A DNA stretch of 37,730 nt from an archaeon (GCA_020052735.1 JAGVON010000067.1:1-37730), one strand, 5' to 3'. Shown: positions 17,434-35,225, counted from the first letter of the stretch. Notes: generated by a model not told the origin, from the letters alone. Translations and numbers: made by a program.

Positions 17434-17494
17434 CAAATGGATAATGCGAAGGAGGAGTTTTAATCTATTGCGATGGGGGCTGGGTGCGGGATCC

Positions 17495-17830
17495 TTACAT
17501 GAACCTGGTGCCGCACACCGGGCATTTGGTATAAAGAGTGTCCATCTCATATCCGCAGATGGGGCACCTCCACACCTGCTTCTTCGCGCGGGCAATTTCG
17601 GCCTCAAAATCATAGTCCCCTTTCACGCATTTCTTGGCGTCCAGCTCGTTCAGCTCGCCGCACTTGGGGCATTTCTTCCTGAACATGGACTTTATGCGCA
17701 CCCCGCAGGAGGGGCAGCGCTCCATGTCCAGCGTGACCTTTGCGCCGCAGGAGGGGCACTTGTAGTCCTTGTCCGCAAGCGTGGATTTCTTCTTTGAAAG
17801 CCCCTGCGTTATCGCGTCTAATAATCCCAT
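17495..17830 (-). CDS. Multi-zinc-ribbon protein
   Basis: 111 aa with five CPxC pairs (CPSC, CPSC, CPKC, CPIC, CPVC) arranged as about three Zn ribbons. Its start overlaps the stop of the upstream secreted-protein gene by 13 nt. Confidence 0.7.
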   Translation of the reverse strand: MGLLDAITQGLSKKKSTLADKDYKCPSCGAKVTLDMERCPSCGVRIKSMFRKKCPKCGELNELDAKKCVKGDYDFEAEIARAKKQVWRCPICGYEMDTLYTKCPVCGTRFM

Positions 17831-18837: not shown

Positions 18838-18856
18838 GATGGGGATTTGCAGGAAG

Positions 18857-18866
18857 TATTTATATA
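18857..18866. promoter_or_regulatory. Single TATA box shared by two divergent transcription units
   Basis: TATTTATATA sits in a 50-nt spacer. It is centred about 25 nt from the minus-strand ATG at 18837 and about 26 nt from the plus-strand ATG at 18888. Confidence 0.5.
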
Positions 18867-18887
18867 CTTTACAGAAGAGTGGAAAAG

Positions 18888-20171
18888 ATGCGGGGTTGGC
18901 TGTTCGCGTTCGTACTGCTTGGGCTAGCCTTCGCTGCTGCCCCCGAAGTGCACCTGCCTAACCTGGACCCGTTTGAGAACCCGCTGCTCATCGGGGCGAT
19001 GATTCTTCTGGCGGTCTCGTTTTCCGCGCTGGCATACGCCGTGTCCACCGCCATACAAAACCCCTCCGCAATCGCCTGGAGCAAGGACATGGTGAGGGAA
19101 ACCATAGCGGGCGTGATAATAGTCGCAATAGTGTATGGGGCTGCGGTCACCGCGAACGGGATGATAGTGGGCATGACCGGGTACGGAAGCCTTACCGAAG
19201 TGGGCTCGGGGCCGACCGAACTCGGCTCGGCCGCCCTTGACCCGCTTCTTGGGGACCTGGAGATGGTCTACGGGAAGGTCGCAGAGGCGTATTTCTCCGT
19301 GGCGGTGCAGCAGGGCACCTCCATGAGCGTCACGTTCTCCGTGCCCCCTGTAAAATTCTTCTTCCTGCAGCCGGCGATATATTACGCGAGGGACATGATG
19401 CCGTATTACGGGATGGCGCCCATGCTGCAGTCGCTAACCCAGAGCTCCTACCAGCTCACGATACAGATGCTGAGCCTGAAGATGGTGAAGGTTTTCCTGG
19501 TGTATATCGGCGCGGTGGTGCCCGGCTTCCTGCTCCCGCTCGGCTTCGTGTTCAGGATTTTCCCGCTCACCAAGAAGGCGGGCGACACGCTGATAGCCCT
19601 GAGCCTCGGGGGCCTGTTCATGCTGCCGGCGTCCCTCATAGTGGTCAAGGAGATGCGGGACCTGGCCGGCTTCGGGAACGCGGGGAGCGCGGTCGGCTTC
19701 GTGAGGACCGAGAAATTCTACGATAACGTGGAGCCGACGCTGTTCTCGCAGCAAAGCGCGGCGCTGGTCAGCGGGCTGTGCCAGAACACCGCGGTAAAAG
19801 TGATATTCGGGTTCGGGGAGATGTTCTGGGGGATCCTCTACGCGCTCATAATGCTGCTGATGCAGAACTATGATTTCTTCGGGAATTTCAACACCTTCGT
19901 GAGCCAGATATGGCCATGGATAATATACGCGCTGCAGATGCTTTATGCGACCGTGCTCACCGCGATAGCGGAAAGCGCCGACTCGGGGGCCATGTATGAC
20001 CGGACGATACAGCCCATAGTGCAGTACCTGTTCCCTGCGGTCAGCGAGATAACCGCCTTCTCCATCATTTCCATAATCATGATCGCGGTGATAACATACG
20101 GCGGGACAAGGGCGGTCTCAACCGCGCTGGGCGGCGAGTACTCATTCGCCGGCATAACGAGGATGGTATGA
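18888..20171 (+). CDS. Polytopic membrane protein, paralog A of a six-member family (unknown function)
   Basis: It has a signal-like N-terminus and then TM1, which ends in ALAYA. The post-TM1 motif is NPSAIAWSKDMVRE. The core motif is LPLGFVFRIFPLTKKAGD (19533-19586). The C-terminal tail is LGGEYSFAGITRMV. I preferred the ATG at 18888 over the track's GTG at 18879. Confidence 0.8.
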   Translation: MRGWLFAFVLLGLAFAAAPEVHLPNLDPFENPLLIGAMILLAVSFSALAYAVSTAIQNPSAIAWSKDMVRETIAGVIIVAIVYGAAVTANGMIVGMTGYGSLTEVGSGPTELGSAALDPLLGDLEMVYGKVAEAYFSVAVQQGTSMSVTFSVPPVKFFFLQPAIYYARDMMPYYGMAPMLQSLTQSSYQLTIQMLSLKMVKVFLVYIGAVVPGFLLPLGFVFRIFPLTKKAGDTLIALSLGGLFMLPASLIVVKEMRDLAGFGNAGSAVGFVRTEKFYDNVEPTLFSQQSAALVSGLCQNTAVKVIFGFGEMFWGILYALIMLLMQNYDFFGNFNTFVSQIWPWIIYALQMLYATVLTAIAESADSGAMYDRTIQPIVQYLFPAVSEITAFSIISIIMIAVITYGGTRAVSTALGGEYSFAGITRMV

Positions 20172-21049
20172 TGAGGGGAATTGCGATTATCATGGCTCTC
20201 GTCTCCTTTTCCTCGGCCGGCTGCGGCATAATGGACACGGACGCCAACGTGGCGTTCACGCAGGCGCTCCCGATCATAGGCGCGGCGATCGCGCTTTCCA
20301 TCGCAGTGGCGGCGCTCGCCTACATGGCGGGCAGTTTCATGAGGAACCCCAACCTGCTCGTTTTCAGCAAGGACCAGATATTCCACACGTTCGTTTCTGT
20401 GCTCCTTGTTATCTCAATAGAGGGGATATTCTATGGGACGTGCATGTTCGCCAGCAGCGCGGCCGGCAGCGACCTGCAGTCCGCTTCCCTCAATTACATG
20501 CGGGAACTGCGGGTGGACGGCGGCCAGATGCTCGCCCAGATAATGAAACGCTCAATTGAGTATAAGTTTGAGGCAGCGTATTATACGGCATACCAGGTCC
20601 CGTACATGGGAGGGGAGGCCTATTGGTGGGAGGCATACAACAACGCATACGCCCGCAACCTGGAGATGCTGTTTGACTTCGTGATGGTGGGGTATGTCAG
20701 CGCGGGCGTGCAGTACAACCTCCTCGGGATGCTGCCGCAGATTGCGCTGGGCGTGATGGTGCCGATGGGGCTCCTGCTGCGCTGCATCCCTAAGGCGAGG
20801 GAGGCGGGAAACATGGTGATGGCGCTCGCCCTTGCGCTTTATGTCGTGATTCCGTTCTGCTACGCGGTCGCATCAACCATGAGGGAGACGGAGGTGCCGT
20901 GGTTCACCGGAGCGCCTGACGACACGGGCATCTCTTTTGAGGACGCGGGGCTGTACCTGTTCCAGACAATATTCCTGCCGAACCTCGCCTTGGTCGTGTT
21001 CGCGACCGCGGTGGGCGGGCTGATGAAGGTGGCTAAGGTGATACCATGA
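20168..21049 (+). CDS. Polytopic membrane protein, paralog B (shortest member)
   Basis: It overlaps A in ATGA. It has a lipobox-like SSAGC, then AALAYMAGSFMRNPNLLVFSKDQ. The core motif is VPMGLLLRCIPKAREAGN (20759-20812). Confidence 0.8.
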   Translation: MMRGIAIIMALVSFSSAGCGIMDTDANVAFTQALPIIGAAIALSIAVAALAYMAGSFMRNPNLLVFSKDQIFHTFVSVLLVISIEGIFYGTCMFASSAAGSDLQSASLNYMRELRVDGGQMLAQIMKRSIEYKFEAAYYTAYQVPYMGGEAYWWEAYNNAYARNLEMLFDFVMVGYVSAGVQYNLLGMLPQIALGVMVPMGLLLRCIPKAREAGNMVMALALALYVVIPFCYAVASTMRETEVPWFTGAPDDTGISFEDAGLYLFQTIFLPNLALVVFATAVGGLMKVAKVIP

Positions 21050-23337
21050 GGGCTGCACGCATATTCCTGCTCACATTCGCATTCCTCCTTGCCGCGGCCT
21101 TCGCGCAGGGCAGCGCGGGGGAGATACTCGCAGGCGTGCAGGAGCAGCCCGGGCTGCTCGGCAGCATAGCAAAGGACTGGCAGGTCTATACTGTGGCAGT
21201 GATGCTGCTGATGGCGGGGCTTGTGGCGCTCGCGTATGCGATAGCGAACTCGTTCTCGCTGCCCGACCTGAGGGCATGGGCGGACGTGGAGCTGGGGGAG
21301 ATATTCGCCAGCGCGCTCCTGCTGATGTTCATAATAGGGATAATATCGTTCATAGACGTGAGCGCCGCAGGCATACTCGGCCCGAGCTTCCCGAGCTCCT
21401 GCGAAAAGCCGGGCTTCTGCCCCGCGAACATCGCCTCGGACTACCTGGACAGCTACCTGAAGGCCGCGAATTCCGCATACAGGACAACGATGGTCAACAG
21501 CATAGACACCGCGAACGACGCGTTCGCGGGCAGCACGGTCGGCATACAGGACCTTATATACGGCTACCTCACGTACAGGTTCAGGGACAACCCCGAGAAG
21601 ATGATACAGGTGGAGATGTACGACCAGGTCCTGCAAAACCTCTCCGCAGTGCTGGCCTCGCTCGGGATGCAGAAGTTCATGCTGAAGTTCATGACATTCA
21701 GCGTAGCGCCCGTTGCGATATTCCTCGGCATTGTGCTGCGCTCTTTCTTCCTCACGCGCAAGATGGGCGGCCTCCTGCTTGCGTTCGGGCTGGGCTTCCT
21801 TGTGGTATACCCCCTCACTTATGCGCTGGCGTGGTACACGCTGGATGCGGCGATTTACGGGGCGCAGAAGGGCCCGAGCGGTACGCTGAACCCCTGCCCG
21901 AAAGTGTGCCTGCCGTTCTCCAAGGTGGTTGACCTTTCGGAAACGCCGCTCGTGGAGGTGCCCATGGAAACGGTGAGGGAGGACTTCCATGGCCAGTGCA
22001 TGGCTGAGCTGGAGAGCGACGGCATAGGCGAGACGGGCCGCTCAAACACCTGCATGGACGCATGCAGGGATGATGTGGATTCAACAGGGCGCTCGGATAG
22101 CTGCATGGACGGATGCACCGCAGGGATAGATTCCACGGGCAGGAGCGTACCGTGCATGGACGGCTGCATGGGGCAGTACTTCTTCAACTGCCAGGCAAGG
22201 TGCGCGGAACAATGCACCGAGGCGGGCTATGAGATGCCCGCGGCGGAGTTCCCGGACCCCGCGGTTGTCGCCAGGTGGGAGGAATGCATGGACCCGTGCA
22301 TGGAAGCGGAGAACTGCGACGCGACTGGGGTGGAAAGGACATCTTATTGCCAGGCAAACGAATGCCCGGTCGTGATAGGGGAGCTGGCTAGCGGGGTGGA
22401 ATACTGCCAGGCAACGGAGTGCGGCGTGCTGCCAGGATACACGGGCGAAGAAACGGCGTACTGCGAAGGGCAGTGCACCCCCCTTGAAGGGTTCGGGGGC
22501 AGCAGCGAGGAGTATTGCGACCATGAAACGGATGGGATGGTGGCACGGCTGGGGAGAACGGGCGGGGTGGCGGTGGGGAGCGGGGCGGATTACCACTCAT
22601 ACGGGTATTGCCCTGTGGACCCGTGCGGGTTCCCGATACCCTACCAGAAAAAGGAGTGCCTCGGATACACCGGAACCCCTAACATATGCAACACAAGGCC
22701 GTTCCAGCCCGACGACCCGGCATATGCGATGATGGACGCGAGCGAACTGGTGGACGGGTGCCCCGCGGAATGCAGGACGCTTGCGCCGATGGCGCCTGGC
22801 GCTGAATGCTTCAACCGGAAGAGCATACGGCAGGATGACGGGACGTACAAATACGAGCCGCTATGCCCGTCGCAATGCATGTGGATAACCACGGGCGGGG
22901 AGACGGACCGGACGTGCCCGGACGAATGCAGGGAATTCTATCCGGCACACCCGCAGGAGCTCTGGGACGCGAAGGCCTCGGACCAGACCTGCGTGTACAT
23001 AATACCTGATGTTGTTTTTGACGAGCCGGACACGTGCTCGCAGTGCGCGTTCGTTGCGGAGAAGGGGCTCACGATGGAGCCCGCGATGATATGGGACTGC
23101 ACCGCGTTCTGCGGCGCACCGAGTTCAACGGTGATGGGGCAGGACCCGGCCACGATGACGAACAACATAGGCGGGATGCAGGGGCCGACTGATGTCATAG
23201 CGGTGAGCAAGCTGATGGTGCCTGCCTTCGTGCTCCCGATTTTCTGCCTTGCGGTGACGCTGATGTTCGTGATGTCGCTTTCGCCCATGCTTGGCGGCGA
23301 CATAGACATACCTGGGATGATGAGGATGATGCAATGA
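21046..23337 (+). CDS. Polytopic membrane protein, paralog C, with a roughly 400-aa Cys-rich ectodomain insertion
   Basis: It overlaps B in ATGA. It has VALAYAIANSF…LRAWADVELGE. The core motif is IFLGIVLRSFFLTRKMGG (21718-21771). After the core hairpin comes a Cys-rich insert (about 21892-23115). The terminal TM helix is followed by the tail LGGDIDIPGMMRMMQ. Confidence 0.85.
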   Translation: MRAARIFLLTFAFLLAAAFAQGSAGEILAGVQEQPGLLGSIAKDWQVYTVAVMLLMAGLVALAYAIANSFSLPDLRAWADVELGEIFASALLLMFIIGIISFIDVSAAGILGPSFPSSCEKPGFCPANIASDYLDSYLKAANSAYRTTMVNSIDTANDAFAGSTVGIQDLIYGYLTYRFRDNPEKMIQVEMYDQVLQNLSAVLASLGMQKFMLKFMTFSVAPVAIFLGIVLRSFFLTRKMGGLLLAFGLGFLVVYPLTYALAWYTLDAAIYGAQKGPSGTLNPCPKVCLPFSKVVDLSETPLVEVPMETVREDFHGQCMAELESDGIGETGRSNTCMDACRDDVDSTGRSDSCMDGCTAGIDSTGRSVPCMDGCMGQYFFNCQARCAEQCTEAGYEMPAAEFPDPAVVARWEECMDPCMEAENCDATGVERTSYCQANECPVVIGELASGVEYCQATECGVLPGYTGEETAYCEGQCTPLEGFGGSSEEYCDHETDGMVARLGRTGGVAVGSGADYHSYGYCPVDPCGFPIPYQKKECLGYTGTPNICNTRPFQPDDPAYAMMDASELVDGCPAECRTLAPMAPGAECFNRKSIRQDDGTYKYEPLCPSQCMWITTGGETDRTCPDECREFYPAHPQELWDAKASDQTCVYIIPDVVFDEPDTCSQCAFVAEKGLTMEPAMIWDCTAFCGAPSSTVMGQDPATMTNNIGGMQGPTDVIAVSKLMVPAFVLPIFCLAVTLMFVMSLSPMLGGDIDIPGMMRMMQ
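22033..22167 (+). repeat. In-frame 51-nt (17-aa) tandem repeat inside paralog C
   Basis: TGRSNTCMDAC, TGRSDSCMDGC and TGRSVPCMDGC start at aa 330, 347 and 364, an exact 17-aa period. At nucleotide level each unit is ACxGGxxGxxxxxxxxxxTGCATGGACGxxTGC. Confidence 0.8.
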
Positions 23338-24404
23338 GGCAAACTGGACGGCTGTTGCTGTTGCTGGCGCTCCTTTCGCTCTCCTTCGCGGCCGGCGAGT
23401 CCCCGGACTGGGTTCCAATTGCGCTGCTCGCCGCCTTCACCGGGCTCGGCGTGCTTGTGATATTCTACCTCATCAGCTATGTTGTTGAGGCGGACCAGAT
23501 GAGGTCCATGGCCATTTCCGAGATGTGGCAGGTCGTCATAACCGCGGTGATGATCGCAGGGTTGATCGGGGCGCAGGCGCTGGCCACGGAGTTCGGCGCG
23601 GGGATGGCAGGCGATTTCGGCGCAGAGCCTGGCGACACGCAGCTGGATTTCGCAGTGAAGGTCACCCAGGCGACCGTTGAGTACCAGTGGGGCACCCTGA
23701 TGGATTATACAAACAATGTAGTGCTGCCGATGGGCGACCTCGCGTCCCTCTCCGGGAACTGCTGGCTGTTCGGGGTGGCATTCACATATTCAGGATGCGC
23801 GAGCATAAACGTGCCCTTCTCCTCAGCGTCCCTCGCGGCGAGGACCATGGCGATGGCGATACTGGCGCTGAACTCGCAGCTGGTGCTTCTGAAATTGGCG
23901 GGCAGCTTCTTCTTCCCGGTGCTGCTGCCGGTGGGGCTGTTCATGCGCACTTTCCACGTTACTAGGGGCACCGGGGGCTTCCTCATCGCGTTCGCCGTGG
24001 CGTTTTATTTCGTTTATCCCCTTGCAACGGTGCTCACGAAAGGGATGGCGGACATGGTCCCCCTCTCCTCAACCGGCGCCTCCTACCCTGGCATAGACCA
24101 GGTGTACGCGGACGAGACATGGGAATTCAGCAACGTTTACACATTCACGGTGCCGGCGGAATGCGACCCGTTCAAGACGTATGATTACCCGGAGACGGAC
24201 GAGTTTGAGGGATTCGGATACACGCAGAACCAGGTGAACAACCTGCTGAACGAAAACCTGATGGACCCGCTGCTGTTCATCTTCATGATAGAAGGGATAT
24301 TCAGCCCCGCGCTGAGCGTGCTGATTACGCTAGCGGTGCTGCGGCCCCTGACAAGGGCATTCGGGACCGAGGTTGACGTTTCGGCCCTAGGGAGGGTGTC
24401 TTAG
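23334..24404 (+). CDS. Polytopic membrane protein, paralog D
   Basis: It overlaps C in ATGA. The core motif is LPVGLFMRTFHVTRGTGG (23925-23978). The tail is FGTEVDVSALGRVS. Confidence 0.8.
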   Translation: MRQTGRLLLLLALLSLSFAAGESPDWVPIALLAAFTGLGVLVIFYLISYVVEADQMRSMAISEMWQVVITAVMIAGLIGAQALATEFGAGMAGDFGAEPGDTQLDFAVKVTQATVEYQWGTLMDYTNNVVLPMGDLASLSGNCWLFGVAFTYSGCASINVPFSSASLAARTMAMAILALNSQLVLLKLAGSFFFPVLLPVGLFMRTFHVTRGTGGFLIAFAVAFYFVYPLATVLTKGMADMVPLSSTGASYPGIDQVYADETWEFSNVYTFTVPAECDPFKTYDYPETDEFEGFGYTQNQVNNLLNENLMDPLLFIFMIEGIFSPALSVLITLAVLRPLTRAFGTEVDVSALGRVS

Positions 24405-25556
24405 ATGGTGTGCGCGGACATAAGCTGGCTGTATTCCCTTTCCGTGCTTTCGCTTGGGGTCACCCTAGTGGTCCTGGGCTTGGCGTACGCGCTGGGGCAG
24501 CTCCTCAGCAACCCCCAGTTCAACGTATGGGCAAAGACGGAGATGTTCCAGGTGTTCATTTCGTTCTTCCTGGTCCTGCTCGTGCTCTTCATGAGCGGCT
24601 CAATGTGCCACTTTAAGTATGCGGACCTTGCCGGGCTGGGCCCGGCAAGCAGCAACCCGCTGGACCTCTCCGCAAACCAGTACGCATACACGCATCCGGA
24701 AATCCTCCCGGAGGACAATATGATAAATGCGTCTGGGAAATACCTCGCGAACGTAGCGTATTTCATAAACACCGAAATGAGGGCGGCACGCGCCCTGTAC
24801 GGGATTTCGGACGAGGCGTCAAGGTATTCGCGCACCCCGTGCATGCCTGCCGCGACATTCTGCCTGTACGGGACCAGCGGATACACCGTGAGGCCGTACT
24901 CCGGGCTGAGCAGCTGGTCGCAGATACTCGGGTTCTCGCTCTACACCGACACCGCCTCATACCTGACCGTCCTCATACAGATGGCTCTGCTCGCGTTCAT
25001 ATCCGGGGGAGGGATAATGGCGTACCTGCCGCTTGCGATAATACTGCGCTCGCTCCCGTTCATGAGGCAGCTCGGGGGCGGATTGCTGGCGATATGCATA
25101 GCCCTGTTCATCATCTACCCTGCGCTGCTCACCGTGGAGTCCCTGTTCTGGAACCCATACCAGATGATTGGGGACGGCTGGGGCACGCTTGTGGATGCGG
25201 CGAACAGCATGGGCAGGGGATTCTCGTATGTGAGCGCGGGGGCGTATGCGGAGACCATGGCCGCGGCGCTTCTCCTGGCGGGCGCTCTTCTGGACCTGGC
25301 CGCGATAATAGCCGTGGCTGTTTCGGCTGGGTTTGTGAGCGCGGTGCTCGCGATAGTAAGCGCGGCGGGCGGCCAGTGGACGCTGGACACGTTCAATGCG
25401 GCGGTGCAGGTGAGCATGCAGGCGTCTTCCATATCCTTCTTAAGCGCGACGTTCCTCCTTTCGCTGAACATAATAGCCATAGGCGCGTCCGCACGGGAGA
25501 TTGGAAGGCTGTTGGGGCAGGAAGTAGACCTGAGCAGGCTTATGCAGGTGTTGTGA
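24405..25556 (+). CDS. Polytopic membrane protein, paralog E
   Basis: Its ATG directly abuts the TAG of D. It has LGLAYALGQLLSNPQFNVWAKTEMFQ. The core motif is LPLAIILRSLPFMRQLGG (25026-25079). The tail is LGQEVDLSRLMQVL. It has no signal-like prefix. Confidence 0.8.
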   Translation: MVCADISWLYSLSVLSLGVTLVVLGLAYALGQLLSNPQFNVWAKTEMFQVFISFFLVLLVLFMSGSMCHFKYADLAGLGPASSNPLDLSANQYAYTHPEILPEDNMINASGKYLANVAYFINTEMRAARALYGISDEASRYSRTPCMPAATFCLYGTSGYTVRPYSGLSSWSQILGFSLYTDTASYLTVLIQMALLAFISGGGIMAYLPLAIILRSLPFMRQLGGGLLAICIALFIIYPALLTVESLFWNPYQMIGDGWGTLVDAANSMGRGFSYVSAGAYAETMAAALLLAGALLDLAAIIAVAVSAGFVSAVLAIVSAAGGQWTLDTFNAAVQVSMQASSISFLSATFLLSLNIIAIGASAREIGRLLGQEVDLSRLMQVL

Positions 25557-26564
25557 ATGGCTGCGGAGGATTTGTTCCACTGGGCGTTTGCGGGCTGGGG
25601 AGCCGGCGGGTTCTGGTTCGTAAACTGCATACTTGCGATACTCATAACCGCGGTGGTGATGGGGACCATCTACATAATCTCATACGCCTTCAACATGGGC
25701 GGGCTGAAAAGGTTCGCGGTGTCGGAGTTCTACCAGCTTGCGGCGACGGCGGTGCTGGTCATTTTCCTGGTCGTGATAGTTGAGAACGGGCAGGAGTTTT
25801 TCCTTTCCAGGTACCCCGGCGGGATAATCTGCCAGGGCGCGGTGGTGCACAACACCGTGGAGGCTGCGATGTGCCGCACCGAGGAGCGGCTCACGTATTT
25901 CAGCAACGCGTTCAATAGCATACGGGACAGCAGCGACCTCGCGGACAAGGAGCTCAGGTACTATTCATCCATGTCGCTGTTCGGCATAATATTCTGGCAG
26001 GGGAACTTTGACGCCAGCCTGCACAAGTACGTGGAGACGCAGCACGCGATAGCGTACAAGCTGGTTTCGCTGATGATTTCGCTCAACAGCCAGGTTTTCG
26101 TGCTTAAATACATATTGGAGAACATGCTGGTGTTCTTCCTTCCGCTTGGGATAGTGCTCAGGACCCTGCATTTCACGCGCGGCATAGGCGGTTTCTTCAT
26201 CGCGCTCGCGGTTTCCTTGTATTTCATCTATCCGGGCATGCTCTTCATAATGGACGCGTCATACGGCCCCGCCGCGCCGGAGATGCCGTCCTCAATATCA
26301 AACCGCGCGGACTTCTGCAACATACCTATATTCTCGGGGATGTCGCTGGGGGCGGCCACGCCAGAGGGGCAGAGCACGAGGAGCGCGGCGTCAATATCCG
26401 TAAGCACCTCCAACCTTGCGTCGTTCATGTCGCAGGTTTTCGTGAAGCTGTTTTACGACAATATGGTTGCGCTTTCAATAGCGGTCGTGGCAATGAGGTA
26501 CATGACCATGCTGCTCGGTGGGGACAGCAGCGTGTTCCTGCAGATGATGGGGAGGTGGGTGTGA
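25557..26564 (+). CDS. Polytopic membrane protein, paralog F
   Basis: Its ATG directly abuts the TGA of E. The core motif is LPLGIVLRTLHFTRGIGG (26139-26192). The tail is LGGDSSVFLQMMGRWV. Confidence 0.8.
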   Translation: MAAEDLFHWAFAGWGAGGFWFVNCILAILITAVVMGTIYIISYAFNMGGLKRFAVSEFYQLAATAVLVIFLVVIVENGQEFFLSRYPGGIICQGAVVHNTVEAAMCRTEERLTYFSNAFNSIRDSSDLADKELRYYSSMSLFGIIFWQGNFDASLHKYVETQHAIAYKLVSLMISLNSQVFVLKYILENMLVFFLPLGIVLRTLHFTRGIGGFFIALAVSLYFIYPGMLFIMDASYGPAAPEMPSSISNRADFCNIPIFSGMSLGAATPEGQSTRSAASISVSTSNLASFMSQVFVKLFYDNMVALSIAVVAMRYMTMLLGGDSSVFLQMMGRWV

Positions 26565-29500
26565 TGAAGGGCATTTTCTTTGTCTTGGCTTTCGCTTTCG
26601 TGATGGGGGCGCTCGTGCTTCCGGGCTGCGTGGCGCCGCAGCCGTCGTTCAGCAACTGCTGCATGTATGCAAACGCGAGCGAGGACGGGCGCTGCATAAC
26701 CGCAGACCGCACGGAATACGAAATAGCCGGAGAAGGGTGCGACCTCCTCAACATGGCATGCAACGTCACTCTCGGGGAGGGGGATGAGGCGCACGACGAG
26801 CTCCTGCCCATCTGCCCGAAGTCCGAGCTGCTGAAGTGCAACAGCAGCTGCGTAGGGATGTTCTGCGGCTCCTTTGAGTTTGACCCCAGGCCGCCGATAT
26901 CGCTTGACGCGGAGGACATGAACGATTCCCGCGACACCGGGGATGCGGACACGGGCCAGTTCGGGGGGACTGACAGGGGCGGGGCGAAGGGATTGTACAA
27001 CGGGGAATGCAAGTTCCTGAACATGAGCCCGGCCACCCTGCGCGCCACCGCCAACACGAACGGGGGCTTCGCGCTCAACAGCTTCAGGTTCGGCGTCGGA
27101 GATTCGTTCGCGGATTTTGACGAGGCGAGCATGTACTACCCGCTGACGGACTTCGCATGCAAGATAAACCTGCTCGGCACCACGGACAGGTATGCGAACT
27201 ACGCGATACCGAACGTGCTCGTATCCGGGAAGATATGCAGCCCTCCGAGCCCGGGGGACAACAAGTGGATGTGCATACCCTCCACTTCTCCTGGAGAGGA
27301 GCCCATCTGGGCATATTCCTATTTTGACTGCGCGACGAAGTGCCTGCTCCAGTGGCAGGGCGATTATGCGGGGATAGACCCGGACAGCGCTTACCTCACG
27401 GAGAGGAACGGGCAGGCGCTGGGGAACCCGTTTGCCTACGGGGCAGCCGCGGCATCGCCCTGGGGGCCGCTGATAAACGACAAGGACTACAAGAGCGCCG
27501 TGGTGGAAAGCTCGTTCTACGACGGATATCCGCTCGGCTATAATTATTATGGCGCGGATTTTGAGAGGGACGACCGCCAGCTGGGCCCGGACAGGGGAGG
27601 GATAGATGGGCTGCTCGCGGAGCAGGGAAGCGGGGAATTTATTGTGCAGGGCGATGTGATGGACTATTATGCGGGCGCGGAGGCGGATTTGCCTGTCATG
27701 GAGTGGGACAGCCTGCTTGAGAATTTCGTTACCGTGGAGAGGGAGCCGCACAGGATGTACAACTTCCTGCTCACTTACCATTCAGTCTATTCAAGGCAAT
27801 TCCAGGACGGGCACTACCTGGCGGACGGCTCCTGGGCGAATGGGGCGGAGTTTGAGTGCACGCTTGAGAACAACGGCTGCCTCTCGGGCTACTGCAACAT
27901 ATTTGACTACTCGCGCGGTGTTTGCCAGAACATGGACGACCTGGCGAAGGATGCTAACTGCGACTGCATGTATGATTTCAACGAGGGGGGCGTAGTGTGC
28001 ACCGGAAAGAAATTGCTGAATTCCGCTTCCTGGGACAGGTACGGGGATGCCACCTCCAACATAGAAGTGGCGACCACCCTTGCGGCGCCGATAGACCGGA
28101 TAGGGGACTCGCCCTTCACGCACACCTCCATGCCTTCCAAGGGGAGGATTGTGAAATTCAACCTGGACAACCCGGACTACATAAGCGGCATAGCCGAGGC
28201 GGACCGGAACGACATAGAGAGGCCCTTCCTCGTAATATTCCTTGGCGGCGAGGACACCGTGCCGCAATATACGGTCCGCACAGGGGAAGGGGGCACATCA
28301 TACGGGGACATGGCGGGTGAGGACGTGAGGTGGGACACCCTCACGATACCGCAGGTGCTCTCAAGGGAGAAGTGGGACGGGTGCGGCGGCGACTGCGGGA
28401 AATTCTACACCACGTTCGTGGACCAGTGCGTGCCCACTTATGAGGAAAACCCGGGGTTCTATGCGGACAGCTTCAGCGTGTGCTATGCCGGGGATAACCC
28501 GAGGACCGGATGGCGCGGCATGTACCTGGACACGGACGGGACAATCAAGGACGAAAATTGGAACTGCCAGGGGCTTGAGCTCTTCAACAGGCAACACGTG
28601 GACGGGAAGGGTGACGGCAGGTCGTGGCAGGTGTATTGCTACGCGCGGGACGAGGACGGGAACTGCGAGGCGTATTCTGTTTCCGCGCTCGTGATAAGGG
28701 GAAAGGACGTCATTTACACGGACGCGGATGGGAACGAGGCGGAGGGGCAGGCGTTCGGGAAGTGCCTGCTGGACGGGAATGGGAACCTCCTCACAAAGAC
28801 GTATGGCTACTGCGAACAGTGCGGCTACCTGACCATGGCGAAGGACAGCGTGGTCGCCCTGCCCGAGGAAAAGGACGACCCGGGATACGAGGCGCTGCGC
28901 GGAAGCGGCGGGAGCGCGCAGCGGAAGGACAATAAGTATTGCCCCTCGCTCATGATAAGCACCATTTATTCGCCTGCCGCCTCTTCGTCCATAGAAAGCG
29001 CGCCCCCTCCGCTCGTGGAATGGGAAGGGGAGGGCGTGCATCCTTCAAGCGATGATGAGGATGATTCGTACTACAGGAGCCAGTGCACGATGCCGGACGG
29101 TAGCGAAGTCGGGATGGAAGAGGCATGGCCGGACTACCTTCCGAATGCGTATTACCTGAAGTCAAAGCTGCAGGATTACCTTCAAAGGAACATAATGCCC
29201 GTGCTGTTTGCGGACGACGATGGGCTGTATCGGGCGAGGACTTCGGACAGCGAGCCGTACAAGGACAAGCCCGTGCTGCAAATCGGATTCACAGACCATT
29301 ATGAGGAGATACAGGCGGCCACGACCACTCATCCGCTGCTTGCCGAGATGTGGAGCCGAAATCCGTCCACTTCATATTTTGACAAATACGCGCAGGCAGG
29401 GGACCAGCCGTATGCGTACAGCACGCAGGGAACATATCTTGCGGATTCGGTGATGGACCTGGGCGCCGGGATAATAGTTGTGAAGAACCTGAGCGCCGAT

Positions 29501-30799
29501 TTTGTGGAGGGCTCTGGCATCACTACCGGGCTGGGGTGGAGGTCCGGTTCGGTGAGGGCAATGTGCCCCAATTGCATGGTCGCGGTGGCGGCAGGCTACG
29601 ACGAGGGGAAGGGCTCGCATGAGGAGAAGATGCGGCTGGTTTCACGGCTCTTCGGGTACGGCATGAGATATGGGTCAGGGGAGCCGCTCTGGGAGGACTA
29701 CTCATACAACATGTCCTGCGCAAACGGGGAGGTCCCGTGCCTGTATGAGCGCCTGGATTATGCGGACGTGATTGCGGTGGACTGGACGCTGGGGGGGAGG
29801 AACTCCCACTGCGACATTGAAGGCCAGGACGAAAGGTTCGCCGCGATACTGGCGGACGAGATGGAGTTCGGCTCAAAGATGCTCAGCAGGTTCGGGAAGC
29901 CGCTTGTGGTTACGGACCTCACCATAATACGGCGCGAGGGTGCGATTTATGACGAGGGGGTTAGGGACTGCTGGGACGAGGAGAGCGCGGCGAGGTTCGT
30001 TGGATACCTCGGCCAGCATACGGAAGACCTGATAAGGAGCGGCCATATCGGCATCATTTATGGGGATTGGAGCTATGGGCATTCAAGTGGCACCTCCGGC
30101 CCCACATACATAAGGACGCAGGAGAGCATAGCCGGAGGGAGCGTGGGCGGATACAGGGGCCCGCTCTACGAAGGCACCCTGTTCGCCGCAAGGGACTTCT
30201 CGGGATACGGCAGGATGATTTCATTGATAGAGGTGCCTGTGAAGGAGAGCTGCGCCTGCGTGCCATGCACATCCACGGACCCGGCGGAGATATGCAACGG
30301 CCAGTACGCGGGGAGCGGGGCGCTGTGCGAATGGGAGGGCGCGCGCGTGATGGTCAAGTGGCCAGACGACTGCATAACCGGGGATGCGTGCATGCCCGAG
30401 GGCGAGATTGCGGGATACTTCATGGACTGCACGATAGTGGCGGGCGGGCAGGAAACCTCGTTCAGCGCGGATGGTGCCGATGTCGCGGCTAACCCCGAGC
30501 TTTACAAACAGATGATAGCGTCCATAAGCAACACGGTGGAAAGGCCGTGCTTCATGGGAAAGACATACGGAAAAACAGAGATAACGCGGTTCCTCTCCCA
30601 CCCCGTGCTGTTCAGGACGGACGGGAACCTGAGCTATACATGCAACCCGCTTTCCGCGGCAGAGGGGGCGCTTTGCGGCCCCACGCCCAGCCTGGACCTA
30701 GGGCAGATGGACTGCACGCTGAGGCCGAAGATGGGCGGCATTGTTCCCGGGGGCGGCATTCCGTTCCCTGACCTGCCCAGCGGGCCGATAGGAGGATAA
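26564..30799 (+). CDS. Giant (about 1411 aa) Cys-rich secreted or lipoprotein-like protein, unknown family
   Basis: The ATG at 26564 shares one base with the TGA of F (TGATG); the track lists an upstream GTG at 26555. The signal peptide MKGIFFVLAFAFVMGALVLPGC has a lipobox-like Cys. I counted about 50 Cys by eye. There are many N-x-S/T sequons and no further TM helix. Confidence 0.8.
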   Translation: MKGIFFVLAFAFVMGALVLPGCVAPQPSFSNCCMYANASEDGRCITADRTEYEIAGEGCDLLNMACNVTLGEGDEAHDELLPICPKSELLKCNSSCVGMFCGSFEFDPRPPISLDAEDMNDSRDTGDADTGQFGGTDRGGAKGLYNGECKFLNMSPATLRATANTNGGFALNSFRFGVGDSFADFDEASMYYPLTDFACKINLLGTTDRYANYAIPNVLVSGKICSPPSPGDNKWMCIPSTSPGEEPIWAYSYFDCATKCLLQWQGDYAGIDPDSAYLTERNGQALGNPFAYGAAAASPWGPLINDKDYKSAVVESSFYDGYPLGYNYYGADFERDDRQLGPDRGGIDGLLAEQGSGEFIVQGDVMDYYAGAEADLPVMEWDSLLENFVTVEREPHRMYNFLLTYHSVYSRQFQDGHYLADGSWANGAEFECTLENNGCLSGYCNIFDYSRGVCQNMDDLAKDANCDCMYDFNEGGVVCTGKKLLNSASWDRYGDATSNIEVATTLAAPIDRIGDSPFTHTSMPSKGRIVKFNLDNPDYISGIAEADRNDIERPFLVIFLGGEDTVPQYTVRTGEGGTSYGDMAGEDVRWDTLTIPQVLSREKWDGCGGDCGKFYTTFVDQCVPTYEENPGFYADSFSVCYAGDNPRTGWRGMYLDTDGTIKDENWNCQGLELFNRQHVDGKGDGRSWQVYCYARDEDGNCEAYSVSALVIRGKDVIYTDADGNEAEGQAFGKCLLDGNGNLLTKTYGYCEQCGYLTMAKDSVVALPEEKDDPGYEALRGSGGSAQRKDNKYCPSLMISTIYSPAASSSIESAPPPLVEWEGEGVHPSSDDEDDSYYRSQCTMPDGSEVGMEEAWPDYLPNAYYLKSKLQDYLQRNIMPVLFADDDGLYRARTSDSEPYKDKPVLQIGFTDHYEEIQAATTTHPLLAEMWSRNPSTSYFDKYAQAGDQPYAYSTQGTYLADSVMDLGAGIIVVKNLSADFVEGSGITTGLGWRSGSVRAMCPNCMVAVAAGYDEGKGSHEEKMRLVSRLFGYGMRYGSGEPLWEDYSYNMSCANGEVPCLYERLDYADVIAVDWTLGGRNSHCDIEGQDERFAAILADEMEFGSKMLSRFGKPLVVTDLTIIRREGAIYDEGVRDCWDEESAARFVGYLGQHTEDLIRSGHIGIIYGDWSYGHSSGTSGPTYIRTQESIAGGSVGGYRGPLYEGTLFAARDFSGYGRMISLIEVPVKESCACVPCTSTDPAEICNGQYAGSGALCEWEGARVMVKWPDDCITGDACMPEGEIAGYFMDCTIVAGGQETSFSADGADVAANPELYKQMIASISNTVERPCFMGKTYGKTEITRFLSHPVLFRTDGNLSYTCNPLSAAEGALCGPTPSLDLGQMDCTLRPKMGGIVPGGGIPFPDLPSGPIGG

Positions 30800-30800
30800 A

Positions 30801-30807
30801 ATTTAAA
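30801..30807 (+). promoter_or_regulatory. Candidate internal TATA box ahead of the last large gene
   Basis: ATTTAAA lies in the only real spacer of the operon (32 nt), centred about 28 nt upstream of the ATG at 30832. Confidence 0.3.
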
Positions 30808-30831
30808 GGTGAGCATATCCATAACGAATAC

Positions 30832-33800
30832 ATGAGGAAGGGTTTGCCAGCCGTGGTTATTCTGGTTGCGGCAATCCTTTCCATGGTTCCGGGCATCGTT
30901 TGGGGGGAATATGGAGGAGGCCCTGCGCCCGGCATCTCAAATCCGCTCATCCGCGTGGACATAACGGGGGTGCATGTGATAAGCCCGCAGGAGGTCTGCC
31001 CTTCGTGCAGCATATTCACTACGCAGCCTTTTATGGCGCCGTCCATAAACGAGGAAGAGGAAACCGTCTCCGTGAGCATGGGGGTCATAGATGCGGGCGG
31101 CCTGAGCCCGGTGGAGGGCGCCACGATTTTCGCATATGTGCAGAGGCAGGATGGGAGCAATGCGCAGGCACCCTGCAGGGTATACACCAATGAGAACGGG
31201 AGCGCAAAAATCAGCTACAACCCGGAGGAATGCCGGGATGGGTGCACGACGAAGTTCTTCTTCTGCTGCGCAGACCCGGTCGCGCTGGCATGCGTGCTGG
31301 AGCCGTGCCTCGGCCAGCCGGTTGCCGCATACACGGACATACCCGCATGCGCCGGATACGGTGGGGAATGGCCATCCCCTGCAACCATAGATGGGGAGGA
31401 GGTACAGCTATATCCCACGCTTGAGACTGCATTCATCCCGCCCCAGACGGTGCTGCCGGAATTTGACTACACGTTCACCTTATGCTTCCCGCTGCTGGTG
31501 ATATTCGGGTTCCTGGGGGCTGCGATGTACGCTTCGGGGAGGGACCCGTTCGCGATGTTTTCATTCTATACCCCCAGGTTCACGAGGGGGGCCGAGAGGC
31601 CGATACAGGGAAGGGGATACACCATACCCGGCTCCTCAATAATAAACGTCGCGATGAAGGCGACCGACCTTGCGACCGGTAAGACAACCGCGAAGGAGAT
31701 GTTCACCAGTTCCATGGAGCAGAGCTCCATGATAGCGAAAACAAAGGGCGCCACGGGCGAGCTTGGCTCAGGCACGGGCAGCAGGGCTGCGGCTGGCAGG
31801 GCAGGCGCTGCGGCAGAAGAAACCAGCAGGACCTCCGCAGACCGCATGGCGGCGGGAGGAGGTTCCGGTGCGGTGCTGGGCATGAGCCTCGGGGTGTCAG
31901 AACAGATGATGCGCCCCGGCGCGGCTGGGGTCGGGGTGGGGACCGCGCTTCTTGCGCTGCTGGGGATAATGCTTAGGTTCTCAAACGCTCCCTGGCTTAC
32001 GGGCGGGCTGGCCCAGAAATTGATCGGCATTGCTGAAGCGTGGCAGGCGGAACGCGTCGCGAGCTATGCGCAGACTTATGCGGCGCCAATATCCTCAACC
32101 GTTCAGACGCAGTTTGACTCCGAGGGATATGTGGCAAAACTCACTTACAGGGACCCGCAAAGCGGCCAAACGATTGTTGTGGAGGGGCGGGAGGCATGCG
32201 CAGCGTTCATAGATTCCGTTACGACGGGCCTGTATTTATCCTCCCAGGCAGGAAGCAATGCTGCAACCGAACTCATGAGCAACTTCAACGAAAGGATTGC
32301 AAACCTCCAGCACCCCACAGCAGGGGCGAGGGAGCTGCTCAGGGTGGAAGTGGTCAGGGCTGAGGGGCCTGCCGAGGTCCTGGATGCACTGGGAACCCTG
32401 GCTGACCTGAACTCCTCGGCTGCAAAGAGGCGCGAGGCGCTGGAGATTGTCGCCGGCTCCGACCAGGTTTCGGAAGATGTGAAGATAGCCGCCTTCGTTG
32501 CAGCCACGGAAGGCATGACGTACCACCAGTTTGCGCAGTTCGTTGGCGCGGAAGGAACGGCCGCGAACAGGATATTTTTGGAGCTCGTCTCCAACTCCGC
32601 GGCGCTCAATGAGAGGCTGGACGGGAAGATTGACGGGAACATGCTTGGGGCGCTTGGGGCCGCCGCGGAGCGGCTTGAGCAGCTTAACGGAAGCAGGAGG
32701 GAGGGGCAGGCGGACAGCCTGGGCTTGGGCACGAGTGTCGTTGCAATAAGAAGCGGCATTGGTGAATGCCACGGGGATGCGGATACGTTCGTATTCAGGC
32801 AGGGCACCGAGGAGGCCGCCGCGAAGATGGCTGCTATGGGATTGTCCGGTGCTGCGCTGGACACGCGCATAAGTTTTGATGAAATAGGGGGGCAGCGGGT
32901 TGTTCTCGGCCACATACAGGATGACGAAGTGCGCGCGGAGATTGAAGCAGCCACGGACAGCGAGGGAAATATAGACATATCAAAGCTAAGCGGAAAGGCG
33001 AGAAGCGAGTTGGGAGACGTGATTAACTACCAGCTCAGGGAGGCGGTGGTCAGCGAGTACAATACAGCATATTCCGTGCAGCAGGAGGCGGATTTCAAGA
33101 ACGGGGATTCGGACGAAGCGAAGGCGGTGAGGGCCTTCCAGGATGCGCTGGGGAACTACGAGGCGGCTTCGCAAAGCTCCTATTCCCTTATTGACAGGTA
33201 CGTGACCGGGCCTGCTATGGCTGAGGTTGGCGGGTTGCTGGATAGCAATCCGAATCCTGTGGATAGCCAAGGAAGGTTGACAACGATGGTGCTGCCCGAG
33301 CACCTTGCAGCGGATGACGTGAAGAGGATAATGCAGGACCATGGCGTGGACCCGGAGCTGGCCAGCATAGTCGCAGGCATCAGCGGGGCGGAGGCGCAGG
33401 CGAATTTTGCAACCGGGCTTCGCGAGGGGCTGGGGTCGCTGACGATGGGGCCCGCGGAGTTTCACGGGCAGAATGCAGACAAAGCATATGGCGACATTGG
33501 CGAAGTGGACCGCCAATTGGCAGAATTCAATGCCGCTGTGCAGACGCTCCAAAACCCGGATGCAACTGCAGAAGCGAAAGAGCAGGCGAGGGGCATCGTG
33601 GCTGCGGGCGCATTGATTGTGGCGGACCACGTGCCGGATGATATGGGCAATCTAATCCCGGTAACACTGTGGGAGCATGTGCAGGGGGAGGCAAGCCGCA
33701 TCATGGGCGACCAGAATGCGAGCCAGGCGGACAAGCAGTGGGCGCAGGAGGTCAGCGGCATAAACCCGGAAACGGCGCTGAGTGACGAAAGGCAGGTGGC

Positions 33801-34908
33801 GGTGCTTTGGCAGGAGTACAACACGCATATGGGGGAGCAAAAGGACGCGCTGAATGCAGAGATGGAATCCAGCAGGAATATGGAAACCATATTTGCGCTT
33901 GGGCCGCCCCTTGACCATCCCCCTTCCAATGAACAGGAAAGGATTGTGGCGCAGGAGAGGGAAAGCGCGCTGCGGGCTGCGGTAGAGCAATACGCAACCT
34001 CGGCGTATTCACAAGCCGAAGCAGGTGTAACGCCAGATATTGGGCAAATAATATTAGGCACCATGTACGGAAACCCGAATGAACGGGAGATGCTGGACGA
34101 GGCGAGGTCAGGCCTGCCCCCTGCTGTTCAGGGACAGCTTGACGTGTTCCTTTCGGATACAGCGTCAGATGAGGAGAAATCATCCGCCTTGACTGTGCTC
34201 GTGCCTGCCTTGGATACTTATTACAGGTATGCCGAAAATCCTGCTGACGACCGGCTAACCGCAGCGGACCGCGGAGATGCCCAGTGGGCGGTGCATACGC
34301 TCCAAAATTCGGAGGACCTTGCGGCAAGGGCGCAGGCAGCGGATGTCCTAAAAGGGCTTAGGGGCGTCTCGGCAGAGGCGCAGCCGGGGATAGATGCGCT
34401 GGTTGCCACGGCGAACGTGCCGCCCTCGCAATTTAGCGAGGAGCAAAAGGCAAGCCTTGGCACAGCAGCACCAGTTGTCCAGGAAAGGCTGGATATATAC
34501 TTTGATACTGTGGGGCTTGACAGGGCAGTTTCGGATCCGGATGGGACCCGGCTCGGGCTGGCAAACGACTATGCCGCAGGCCGCCAGACGGAACTGGAAC
34601 AACTCAGGCAATATGCACTTGATGGCGGCAGTGCTGTGGGCAGGGCCCAGTACGAGAACGCACAAATACAGATTTCCCTCCTTGGGAATGAGGCGATAGA
34701 AAAGTTCTATGCGGATATGAACAGGAACAGGGAAATCGCGGAACAAGCTGCAAAGAGCATATCGGAACACAGGCCCGAGGGCGGAACCGGGGAAGGCGCA
34801 GGCGGCGCCGGAGGGCAGGGAGGCGGCACGGCATACAGCTCGGCCGCAAGAAGGACTTCCGAATCCAGGAGCCAGGGGCAAGTGCCGGATGAGGAGATAC
34901 CTAGGTAG
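30832..34908 (+). CDS. Giant (1358 aa) bitopic or two-TM protein, unknown family
   Basis: It has a signal-like N-terminus (PAVVILVAAILSMVPGIVWG) and a roughly 190-aa Cys-containing ectodomain with a prealbumin/CarboxypepD_reg-like stretch (GATIFAYVQRQDGSNAQAPCRVYTNENGSAKISY). TM helix 1 is LCFPLLVIFGFLGAAMYA. A Ser/Ala/Gly-rich loop follows. TM helix 2 is VGVGTALLALLGIMLRF. About 950 aa of Ala/Glu/Gln-rich, probably helical sequence follows. It ends in a Gly-rich tail. Confidence 0.8.
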   Translation: MRKGLPAVVILVAAILSMVPGIVWGEYGGGPAPGISNPLIRVDITGVHVISPQEVCPSCSIFTTQPFMAPSINEEEETVSVSMGVIDAGGLSPVEGATIFAYVQRQDGSNAQAPCRVYTNENGSAKISYNPEECRDGCTTKFFFCCADPVALACVLEPCLGQPVAAYTDIPACAGYGGEWPSPATIDGEEVQLYPTLETAFIPPQTVLPEFDYTFTLCFPLLVIFGFLGAAMYASGRDPFAMFSFYTPRFTRGAERPIQGRGYTIPGSSIINVAMKATDLATGKTTAKEMFTSSMEQSSMIAKTKGATGELGSGTGSRAAAGRAGAAAEETSRTSADRMAAGGGSGAVLGMSLGVSEQMMRPGAAGVGVGTALLALLGIMLRFSNAPWLTGGLAQKLIGIAEAWQAERVASYAQTYAAPISSTVQTQFDSEGYVAKLTYRDPQSGQTIVVEGREACAAFIDSVTTGLYLSSQAGSNAATELMSNFNERIANLQHPTAGARELLRVEVVRAEGPAEVLDALGTLADLNSSAAKRREALEIVAGSDQVSEDVKIAAFVAATEGMTYHQFAQFVGAEGTAANRIFLELVSNSAALNERLDGKIDGNMLGALGAAAERLEQLNGSRREGQADSLGLGTSVVAIRSGIGECHGDADTFVFRQGTEEAAAKMAAMGLSGAALDTRISFDEIGGQRVVLGHIQDDEVRAEIEAATDSEGNIDISKLSGKARSELGDVINYQLREAVVSEYNTAYSVQQEADFKNGDSDEAKAVRAFQDALGNYEAASQSSYSLIDRYVTGPAMAEVGGLLDSNPNPVDSQGRLTTMVLPEHLAADDVKRIMQDHGVDPELASIVAGISGAEAQANFATGLREGLGSLTMGPAEFHGQNADKAYGDIGEVDRQLAEFNAAVQTLQNPDATAEAKEQARGIVAAGALIVADHVPDDMGNLIPVTLWEHVQGEASRIMGDQNASQADKQWAQEVSGINPETALSDERQVAVLWQEYNTHMGEQKDALNAEMESSRNMETIFALGPPLDHPPSNEQERIVAQERESALRAAVEQYATSAYSQAEAGVTPDIGQIILGTMYGNPNEREMLDEARSGLPPAVQGQLDVFLSDTASDEEKSSALTVLVPALDTYYRYAENPADDRLTAADRGDAQWAVHTLQNSEDLAARAQAADVLKGLRGVSAEAQPGIDALVATANVPPSQFSEEQKASLGTAAPVVQERLDIYFDTVGLDRAVSDPDGTRLGLANDYAAGRQTELEQLRQYALDGGSAVGRAQYENAQIQISLLGNEAIEKFYADMNRNREIAEQAAKSISEHRPEGGTGEGAGGAGGQGGGTAYSSAARRTSESRSQGQVPDEEIPR

Positions 34909-34916
34909 GTCTGTAC

Positions 34917-35225
34917 ATGCAGGAAACACGCCCGCTCAGGAGGTTGCGCAGGCACCTTTCAATAGAGAATTTGTGGCTCTATATCTTATCATTAATCAAG
35001 AGAGAGGAATGCTATGCATACACCCTCCCTGAGCAAATAGAGAAGGAGTATGGGTTCAAGCCCAGCCGCGTGATGGTGTATATCGTATTGCACATGCTGG
35101 AGGGCGAGGGGCTCATAAGGGGCGAGCAGAAGGAGAGGCGGAAGTATTATACGCTCACGGAAAAGGGGGACGAGACGCTCAAGGAAGCAAAAAAGGAGAT
35201 GAAAAGGCTCTCCGAAAAGTTATGA
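34917..35225 (+). CDS. PadR-family winged-helix transcriptional regulator
   Basis: 102 aa. …ENLWLYILSLIKREECYAYTLPEQIEKEYGFKPSRVMVYIVLHMLEGEGLIRGEQKERRKYYTLTEKGDETL… matches the PadR pattern. It starts 8 nt after the stop of the giant gene. Confidence 0.75.
   Translation: MQETRPLRRLRRHLSIENLWLYILSLIKREECYAYTLPEQIEKEYGFKPSRVMVYIVLHMLEGEGLIRGEQKERRKYYTLTEKGDETLKEAKKEMKRLSEKL

Follow-up and report, generated by a model that had tools for sequence, protein, structure and literature searches.

A conserved Micrarchaeota gene module encoding six paralogous membrane proteins, two giant proteins and a PadR regulator: a candidate multi-subunit envelope machine

The sequence analyzed here, called the window throughout, is a 37,730-nt (37.7-kb) stretch of DNA (GCA_020052735.1 JAGVON010000067.1:1-37730) from a Micrarchaeota (DPANN) chromosome. 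It carries a module of ∼12 genes that comprises six related membrane proteins, two giant proteins, a PadR regulator and three divergently transcribed genes upstream. The nine co-oriented members, designated g1 to g9, all lie on the plus strand, where open reading frame (ORF) calls reproduced the layout and coordinates given in an initial annotation of the window. The six paralogs are encoded by g1 (18888-20171, with an alternative GTG start at 18879; 427 aa), g2 (20168-21049; 293 aa, the smallest form of the family), g3 (21046-23337; 763 aa, with a Cys-rich second ectodomain), g4 (23334-24404; 356 aa), g5 (24405-25556; 383 aa) and g6 (25557-26564; 335 aa). These are followed by a secreted giant, g7 (26564-30799, with an alternative start at 26555; 1,411 aa, including 53 Cys), a second giant, g8 (30832-34908; 1,358 aa), and a winged-helix regulator of the PadR family, g9 (34917-35225; 102 aa).

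The nine genes are tightly coupled. ATGA overlaps join g1 to g2 (at 20168), g2 to g3 (21046) and g3 to g4 (23334), the next three junctions read TAGATG (24402), TGAATG (25554) and TGATG (26562), and gaps of 32 nt and 8 nt precede g8 and g9, respectively. All of these strings were exactly as annotated; the three divergent genes upstream (16864-18837), in contrast, had been omitted from the cluster. Purine-rich strings that resemble Shine-Dalgarno sequences lie ahead of g2 through g7. Each of the eight structural products has an N-terminal signal-like segment and/or transmembrane (TM) segments, in agreement with the earlier view that all are membrane or secreted proteins. Many overlapping antisense ORFs are also present in the window. 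Because the DNA has a guanine plus cytosine (GC) content of ∼59%, at which long chance ORFs are common, the reality of each gene must rest on its homologs. Every gene of the cluster has orthologs in matching order in ∼20 other Micrarchaeota contigs, and by this comparison the nine ORFs are genes rather than chance ORFs.

Profiles of the g1 to g6 ortholog groups were compared with hhalign, and 15 of 15 pairs aligned with probabilities of 98.8% to 99.9% and E values of 1e-16 to 5e-35. Judged by these alignments and by common motifs, g1 to g6 are true paralogs, as had been proposed. The common architecture begins with a signal-like N-terminus and a TM1-TM2 hairpin whose short loop reads NPxLxAWxKxE, continues through a helical ectodomain to TM3, an invariant loop and TM4 (motif LPxGxxLRxFPxTRxxGGxLIA...YP), and ends with a second variable ectodomain, TM5 and a conserved C-terminal tail (LGGExDLxxxxRV). 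In g1, the second ectodomain spans 111-139 aa. The Arg residues on both the TM3-TM4 loop and the tail fit a positive-inside pattern, consistent with these two elements facing the cytoplasm. AlphaFold2 models were built for two of the paralogs. The g2 model is all-helical with a pLDDT of 68.8. The g4 model, built on 111 sequences, reached a pLDDT of 82.3 and a pTM of 0.78, with long helices at residues 26-51, 54-93, 103-141, 156-205, 211-240 and 307-342; as read from this model, g4 would consist of five TM helices and a three-helix ectodomain bundle.

When the arrays of ∼20 species were compared position by position, the best match was the window paralog of equal position. The duplications must accordingly be ancient, with every copy retained, as would be expected for distinct subunits of one assembly and unlike redundant copies. 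A HMMER scan with the paralog profile collected 2,877 cluster representatives (50% identity) at E≤0.001, of which 1,998 scored ≤1e-10; the family has no Pfam model. In the most divergent lineage (isolate SKW190), the g1 position directly before g2 and g3 is occupied by a 1,717-aa ORF with no Pfam match (L031:3673-8835, plus strand).

The third paralog departs from the others in its outer domain. The window g3 protein contains 41 Cys. In 26 orthologs, this insert of the second ectodomain measures 281-508 aa and contains 20-46 Cys, and its median identity to the window protein is 15% versus 37% for the membrane core. Other members of the family are 1,114-1,284 aa long with repeated CxxCPxxC[RK] units, and the length of the g3 ectodomain varies ∼four-fold across family members. 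Fast evolution and length variation of this kind are seen more often where a protein faces a changing partner. The g3 core motif RSFFxTRKxGGLL comes close to being a signature of the phylum Micrarchaeota. Variable, Cys-rich and CxxC-rich ectodomains are also found in surface proteins of the variant-specific surface protein type of Giardia, and the g3 ectodomain and g7 are likewise Cys- and CxxC-rich, extracytoplasmic, membrane-anchored and variable in length and sequence between species. There is no homology, however; the g3 domain is inserted in one subunit of a conserved multi-paralog membrane core, and g3 is a single-copy gene, not a switching family. In some Micrarchaeota metagenome-assembled genomes, two diverged g3-type copies (32-58% identity) were observed (L135 versus L149/L083, L014/L015, L043/L071 and L053/L127), in one case on a single 54.7-kb contig (CAILMU010000061.1). 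Some genomes therefore have the cluster, or at least a part of it, in duplicate.

The giant g7 has one N-terminal hydrophobic segment and ∼34 Cys that are invariant over ∼1,400 residues in 17 orthologs. Residues 19-22 (L-P-G-C) resemble a lipobox, for which the criterion was L-x-[GA]-C at the end of the signal peptide; G21 and C22 are invariant in the 17 orthologs, and g7 is a candidate for lipid modification. The gene follows g6 in all loci, even where it has diverged beyond detection by phmmer. No shared Pfam domain and no PDB profile match was found in g7 and its 17 orthologs. The sole Pfam family above threshold anywhere in the exported giants is the Cys-rich repeat PF23416 (DUF7107), which was seen in the ORF that follows g7 in lineage L013 (20317-21222, plus strand; E = 5e-16) and in one g7 ortholog (E = 1.2e-8). 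In residues ∼860-1200 of g7 (window 29100-30200), short hydrophobic strands with a terminal D or W recur in alternation (VLFADD, IIVV, MVAVAAGY, VIAVDW, LVVTDL and IIYGDW). This arrangement recalls the pattern of beta/alpha-barrel enzymes, with no support from hidden Markov model (HMM) or PDB profile searches.

The N-terminal part of g8 consists of a signal peptide, a conserved Cys-containing ectodomain, a TM segment and a conserved Arg-rich juxtamembrane stretch (ASGRDPFAMFSFYTPRxTRGAERP). Its C-terminal part contains a second hydrophobic segment and then an acidic, fast-evolving and poorly conserved region of ∼950 aa. The gene lies after g7 in most loci, and in L026 it has been relocated upstream along with PadR. 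No relatives of g8 were found in genome contigs by exact peptides. The possibility that g7, g8 and u1 (see below) are further diverged paralogs of g1 to g6 was rejected, as the hhalign probability was <10%. The assignment of g9 was straightforward: PF03551 matched with 51.9 bits (cutoff 27; E = 7.5e-14) over profile positions 1-75 of 75, which confirms the PadR regulator that had been annotated.

The three upstream genes are on the minus strand. The first, u1 (17818-18837; 339 aa), is transcribed divergently from g1 and encodes a secreted protein with 11 Cys and, by hydropathy and sequence, a C-terminal TM anchor; orthologs occupy the equivalent position in 10 lineages, and the gene is absent in some (L013, L023). 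The second, u2 (17495-17830; 111 aa), has several CxxC pairs of the double zinc-ribbon type, and its orthologs carry precomputed PF12773 (DZR) matches. The third, u3 (16864-17433; 189 aa), is cytoplasmic and highly conserved, with 38-94% identity across the phylum. A faint GNAT-like signal was seen for u3, in that 2 of 13 orthologs matched Pfam Acetyltransf_1 (PF00583) at E = 0.019; a PDB profile search with the family alignment gave no match.

Used as an independent probe, u3 retrieved 60 loci. In 57 of these u2 adjoins u3, and in 47 the paralogs or g7 lie within 6 kb. Three gene arrangements were seen: the divergent u3-u2-u1 facing g1, as in the window; a co-directional g6-g7-(g8)-u2-u3, which is the commonest; and a minus-strand PadR gene beside u2-u3, followed by the paralogs. 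Rearrangement does not separate PadR from the cluster; the gene then lies either divergent from g1 or beside u2-u3. That the linkage of u2, u3 and PadR survives rearrangement is the strongest evidence we have that the module is a functional unit.

The 50 nt between u1 and g1 (18838-18887) appear to form a bidirectional promoter. A near-palindromic TATA box, TATTTATATA, lies at 18857-18866 within a larger near-palindrome, AGTATTTATATACT, and is ∼20 nt from the ATG of u1 (18837) and ∼21 nt from that of g1 (18888). The spacer is 50-53 nt long in ten other lineages, and a central TTTATATA-like box (TTTTTATC in L010) is found in the window and nine other lineages, ∼20-25 nt from each ATG. Archaeal TATA boxes are located ∼25-30 nt upstream of the transcription start. 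This spacing, taken with the distances from box to ATG, therefore points to a single bidirectional promoter, and the u1 and g1 mRNAs both look leaderless by this geometry. For the same reason, ATG 18888 is most likely the start of g1 rather than GTG 18879. The initial annotation had one TATA box driving nine genes; the box is where it was placed, but it is common to the divergent u1, and g8 may have an element of its own. This AT-rich element, ATAAAATTTAAA, lies at 30796-30807, ∼25-35 nt upstream of the g8 ATG, and is kept only in the closest relatives (L008, with a variant in L009). An internal promoter restricted to this lineage is one possibility, and it would give g8 a separate start.

The order g1-g2-g3-g4-g5-g6-g7(-g8) is kept in ∼20 diverged species. 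Most of the rest of the window consists of archaeal core genes (GatD/GatE, FolD, SHMT, MscS, Spt5, FtsZ, Cdc48 and Pelota), and the same neighborhood was found in JBAZFC010000001 (1.03 Mb) and GCA_028686985, where FolD-SHMT-MscS-Spt5-FtsZ-Cdc48 are followed by three minus-strand genes, the six paralogs, two giants, PadR and Pelota. Because this neighborhood matches in distant relatives, the cluster is resident, as had been suspected, and vertically inherited. Complete genomes with the cluster include, besides JBAZFC010000001, OY970229.1 (1.57 Mb). The GC content, which was said to match the surroundings, is 0.57-0.63 in the cluster versus 0.53-0.58 in the flanking core genes. Foreign DNA in the window amounts to two low-GC islands. 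One is a TnpB/IS605 OrfB-type gene (OrfB_IS605 and Cas12f1-like TNB domains) at 5109-6251 on the plus strand, where GC dips to 0.465. The other, between Cdc48 and u3, encodes an 832-aa N6/N4 DNA methyltransferase (14346-16844, plus strand; GC of 0.42-0.44 versus ∼0.57) and looks like a recent insertion, since Cdc48 and u3 are directly adjacent in L001 and L003. A tRNA-Arg (GCG) at 11480-11553 (plus strand), between FtsZ and Cdc48, is the sole Rfam or ARAGORN match in the window. Downstream of Pelota, a 469-aa ORF with no Pfam match (36294-37703, minus strand) has a 491-aa ortholog at the equivalent place in the 1.03-Mb genome and is thus a conserved orphan.

To define the distribution, 185,579 species representative genomes were scanned with motifs. 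Three independent scans returned 25, 68 and 86 loci and, as with the 60 loci found with u3, none is named for another phylum. Record titles for these four probes read Micrarchaeota, Micrarchaeia, Micrarchaeales, Bilamarchaeaceae, Anstonellales, 'ainarchaeum' or an unclassified 'archaeon', and source samples by title include groundwater, sediment, lake and marine material. Every homolog of the cluster proteins with a name is from Candidatus Micrarchaeota or Micrarchaeia, two being listed as 'ainarchaeum'. Among the matches, the module thus appears so far to be restricted to Micrarchaeota. The paralogs, the giants and PadR co-localize across the phylum, in line with the initial annotation, which treated them as one system; the two giants are constant companions of the paralogs.

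No structural protein could be assigned to a known family, and in this respect the initial annotation stands. When all cluster products were searched against Pfam, NCBIfam and PHROGs, PadR alone had a significant match. Profile searches of PDB with alignments of the paralog, g7 and g8 families gave no match, and Foldseek comparison of the g2 and g4 models with PDB and BFVD gave no match at E≤0.001; hhalign comparison was equally unproductive of a known family. Permeases and oligosaccharyltransferases had been named as possible identities, and no Pfam or NCBIfam match to ABC/MFS permease, ATP-binding or STT3 domains was seen in the eight proteins at E values up to 1. No description of the cluster was found in literature searches. 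The families have not been described before and lack a significant match in every library searched, and we regard the finding as new in its sequences, its folds and the composition of the system.

We tentatively propose, as a reading that we hold with something less than even confidence, that the module builds a multi-subunit envelope machine, a hetero-oligomeric complex specific to the lineage, with variable Cys-rich ectodomains on display and a probable function in cell contact. The six paralogs would assemble at fixed stoichiometry into one hetero-oligomeric membrane platform, whose long helices, if the g4 model is a guide, would extend out of the membrane to form a helical bundle in the ectodomain. 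On the inside, the invariant loop (R..P.TR..GG) and the C-terminal tail (GGExDLxxxxRV) would dock a cytoplasmic partner, for which u2 and u3 are the only candidates within the module. The outer face of the platform would carry g7, g8 and the Cys-rich, rapidly evolving domain of g3. Its most likely role would be contact with another cell surface, meaning host attachment, recognition or exchange. The PadR regulator probably adjusts transcription and may act at the 50-nt promoter that u1 and g1 share.

A different origin is suggested by weak similarities to type IV secretion systems (T4SSs), according to which the paralogs would be far-diverged channels of the VirB6/CedA/TedA type with a pilin-like hairpin, and would carry out Ced/Ted-like transfer of DNA or macromolecules with an ATPase encoded elsewhere. 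CedA and CedE are archaeal VirB6-like proteins (PMC9905601, PMC11868833), and the most recurrent NCBIfam families among 65 g4-g6 orthologs were CedE (seven members, best E = 2.2e-4) and CedA (four members, best E = 2.7e-4). Where mapped, these matches fall on the TM3-TM4 segment and on profile positions 108-197, and they include the g4 protein of the window. The N-terminal hairpin, in turn, gave weak matches to PF18895 (T4SS_pilin) in 6 of 111 family members (E = 0.037 for g5 of the window) and to the Mbov_0395 pilin-like family in 3 of the 65 orthologs; the order of parts is that published for CedA and VirB6, in which a pilin-like N-terminus precedes a TM core (PMC9905601). Like Ced, Ted and VirB6/TrbL proteins, the paralogs are polytopic helical membrane proteins, and either group could plausibly act in contact between cells. 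Foldseek also ranked R388 TrwI/VirB6 first for the g2 model, with a probability of 0.91 and an E value, 0.05, that is not significant. However, the CedA and CedE profiles (NF041796, NF053657) scored 15-18 bits against cutoffs of 330 and 400, the mapped CedE matches come from three closely related sequences, and the hairpin also matches unrelated two-TM families. With the better g4 model (pLDDT 82), VirB6 fell to rank 6 (E = 3.2, probability 0.14). PF04610 (VirB6/TrbL) did not match the window proteins or any of the 111 family members, and hhalign of the family profile against a 116-sequence alignment of Agrobacterium-type VirB6 gave P = 0.097 and a probability of 0.6%, comparable to reversed-sequence controls (P = 0.41-0.47) and to unrelated pairs of g8 with paralogs. 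Neither a VirB4/HerA/CedB-type ATPase nor a stand-alone small pilin gene (VirB2/CedA1/TedC type) was found in the window or in the flanks of ∼25 loci, the ATPase search not having been extended to whole genomes; in related loci, Cdc48 and small kinase-like proteins of the AAA_18 type are the only ATPases that flank the cluster, and around rearranged loci the search for an ATPase partner yielded housekeeping genes only. No Ced or Ted locus has six fixed paralogs and two giants (PMC9905601, PMC11868833). The rvh T4SS of the Rickettsiales, which are obligately intracellular and have reduced genomes, resembles the cluster in its tandem VirB6 paralogs, some with giant extensions (PMC7648143, PMC2653234), but those are recognizable PF04610 proteins beside VirB4, VirB8-11 and VirD4, none of which is detectable in the Micrarchaeota cluster. 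Patescibacteria (candidate phyla radiation) are an ultra-small episymbiont lineage that likewise retains a conserved envelope machine, and PF18895 is among the profiles used to seek VirB2-like pilins there (PMC12102498); their system has clear VirB4, VirB6 and VirB3 homologs, whereas the cluster has none above threshold. Because of the sub-threshold scores, the noise-level hhalign result, a g4 model that does not retrieve VirB6, and the lack of a VirB4/HerA ATPase or pilin nearby, the cluster is not filed as a T4SS. The VirB6/TrbL identity that had been raised as a possible refutation thus failed every significance test run, with weak CedA/CedE hints left over, and we judge it unlikely that the cluster is a very distant T4SS derivative or works as a conduit of this kind.

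The main rival outside type IV secretion is a purely structural role, in which the module would anchor or organize the S-layer or pseudoperiplasm, or would act in the insertion or modification of envelope proteins, without taking a direct part in host contact. The Micrarchaeota envelope includes an S-layer and a pseudoperiplasm of 20-25 nm (10.1101/2021.04.28.441871), the module is widespread across their lineages next to core genes, and the long region of g8 after the membrane segments could serve as a spacer. The S-layer domain PF05123 is reported for the S-layer protein of Micrarchaeum harzensis, and this domain and a low Cys content served as criteria (10.1101/2021.04.28.441871). Neither g7, its 17 orthologs nor g8 has PF05123, and g7, with 53 Cys, was rejected as an S-layer protein; the Cys-rich giants are atypical of such proteins. 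The fast-evolving g3 ectodomain, as noted above, also fits a changing partner better. We judge a housekeeping role of this sort unlikely. Still less probable is an uptake system, in which the membrane platform and the large extracytoplasmic proteins would extract lipids or nutrients that cells with reduced genomes cannot make. Such a function would suit the dependence of DPANN archaea on hosts, as it would an all-helical polytopic core whose cytoplasmic loop has conserved charged residues, but nothing specifically favors it, and no transporter signature, ATP-binding protein or substrate-binding protein was found in any search. An integrated mobile element or provirus remnant encoding envelope proteins might be suspected from the nearby TnpB gene and methyltransferase island. 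The cluster, however, has the GC content of its host, gave no PHROG match or BFVD fold match, has no integrase, replication or capsid genes, and occupies an equal chromosomal position in distant species; this synteny effectively refutes the idea.

Several points weigh against a contact machine as proposed above. Strict conservation beside core genes fits a housekeeping envelope role equally well, and the recurrent sub-threshold CedA/CedE and pilin-like matches lend some probability to membership of the VirB6 superfamily. The cultivated acidophilic and thermophilic Micrarchaeota (Micrarchaeum, Mancarchaeum and Microcaldus ARM-1) were not among the matches, although motif-based scans are no proof of absence. 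Cultivated Micrarchaeota are host-dependent, and cryo-electron tomography (cryo-ET) has revealed an unassigned 21-nm barrel in the ARM-1 envelope at the host nanotube docking site (PMC11329633). Any link between the cluster and these published images is speculative, because the cultivated species are not among its matches; the barrel is a target to examine and not evidence for the cluster. A bolder version of the proposal would be an envelope-spanning nanomachine of a new class, a ring of six different paralogs capped by giant disulfide-rich proteins, used by Micrarchaeota for host docking and exchange, with an origin separate from type IV secretion and from every other known secretion or conjugation system; the 21-nm barrel might be an instance of it. 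We consider this version quite a long shot.

Even if the role of the module proves to be housekeeping, the analysis defines several large protein families that have no Pfam model, with 2,877 representatives for the paralogs alone, and the cluster supplies a sequence signature for the phylum Micrarchaeota. The spacer between u1 and g1 also offers a clear case of an archaeal bidirectional promoter, 50 nt long and conserved, that is apparently leaderless in both directions. How DPANN archaea attach to, and take up material from, their hosts is a central question, and in Micrarchaeota this task has not been assigned to any dedicated machinery. The cluster is a concrete and testable candidate for such machinery: it is widespread in the phylum, exported or membrane-embedded, fixed in its multi-subunit composition, and equipped with one fast-evolving surface domain.

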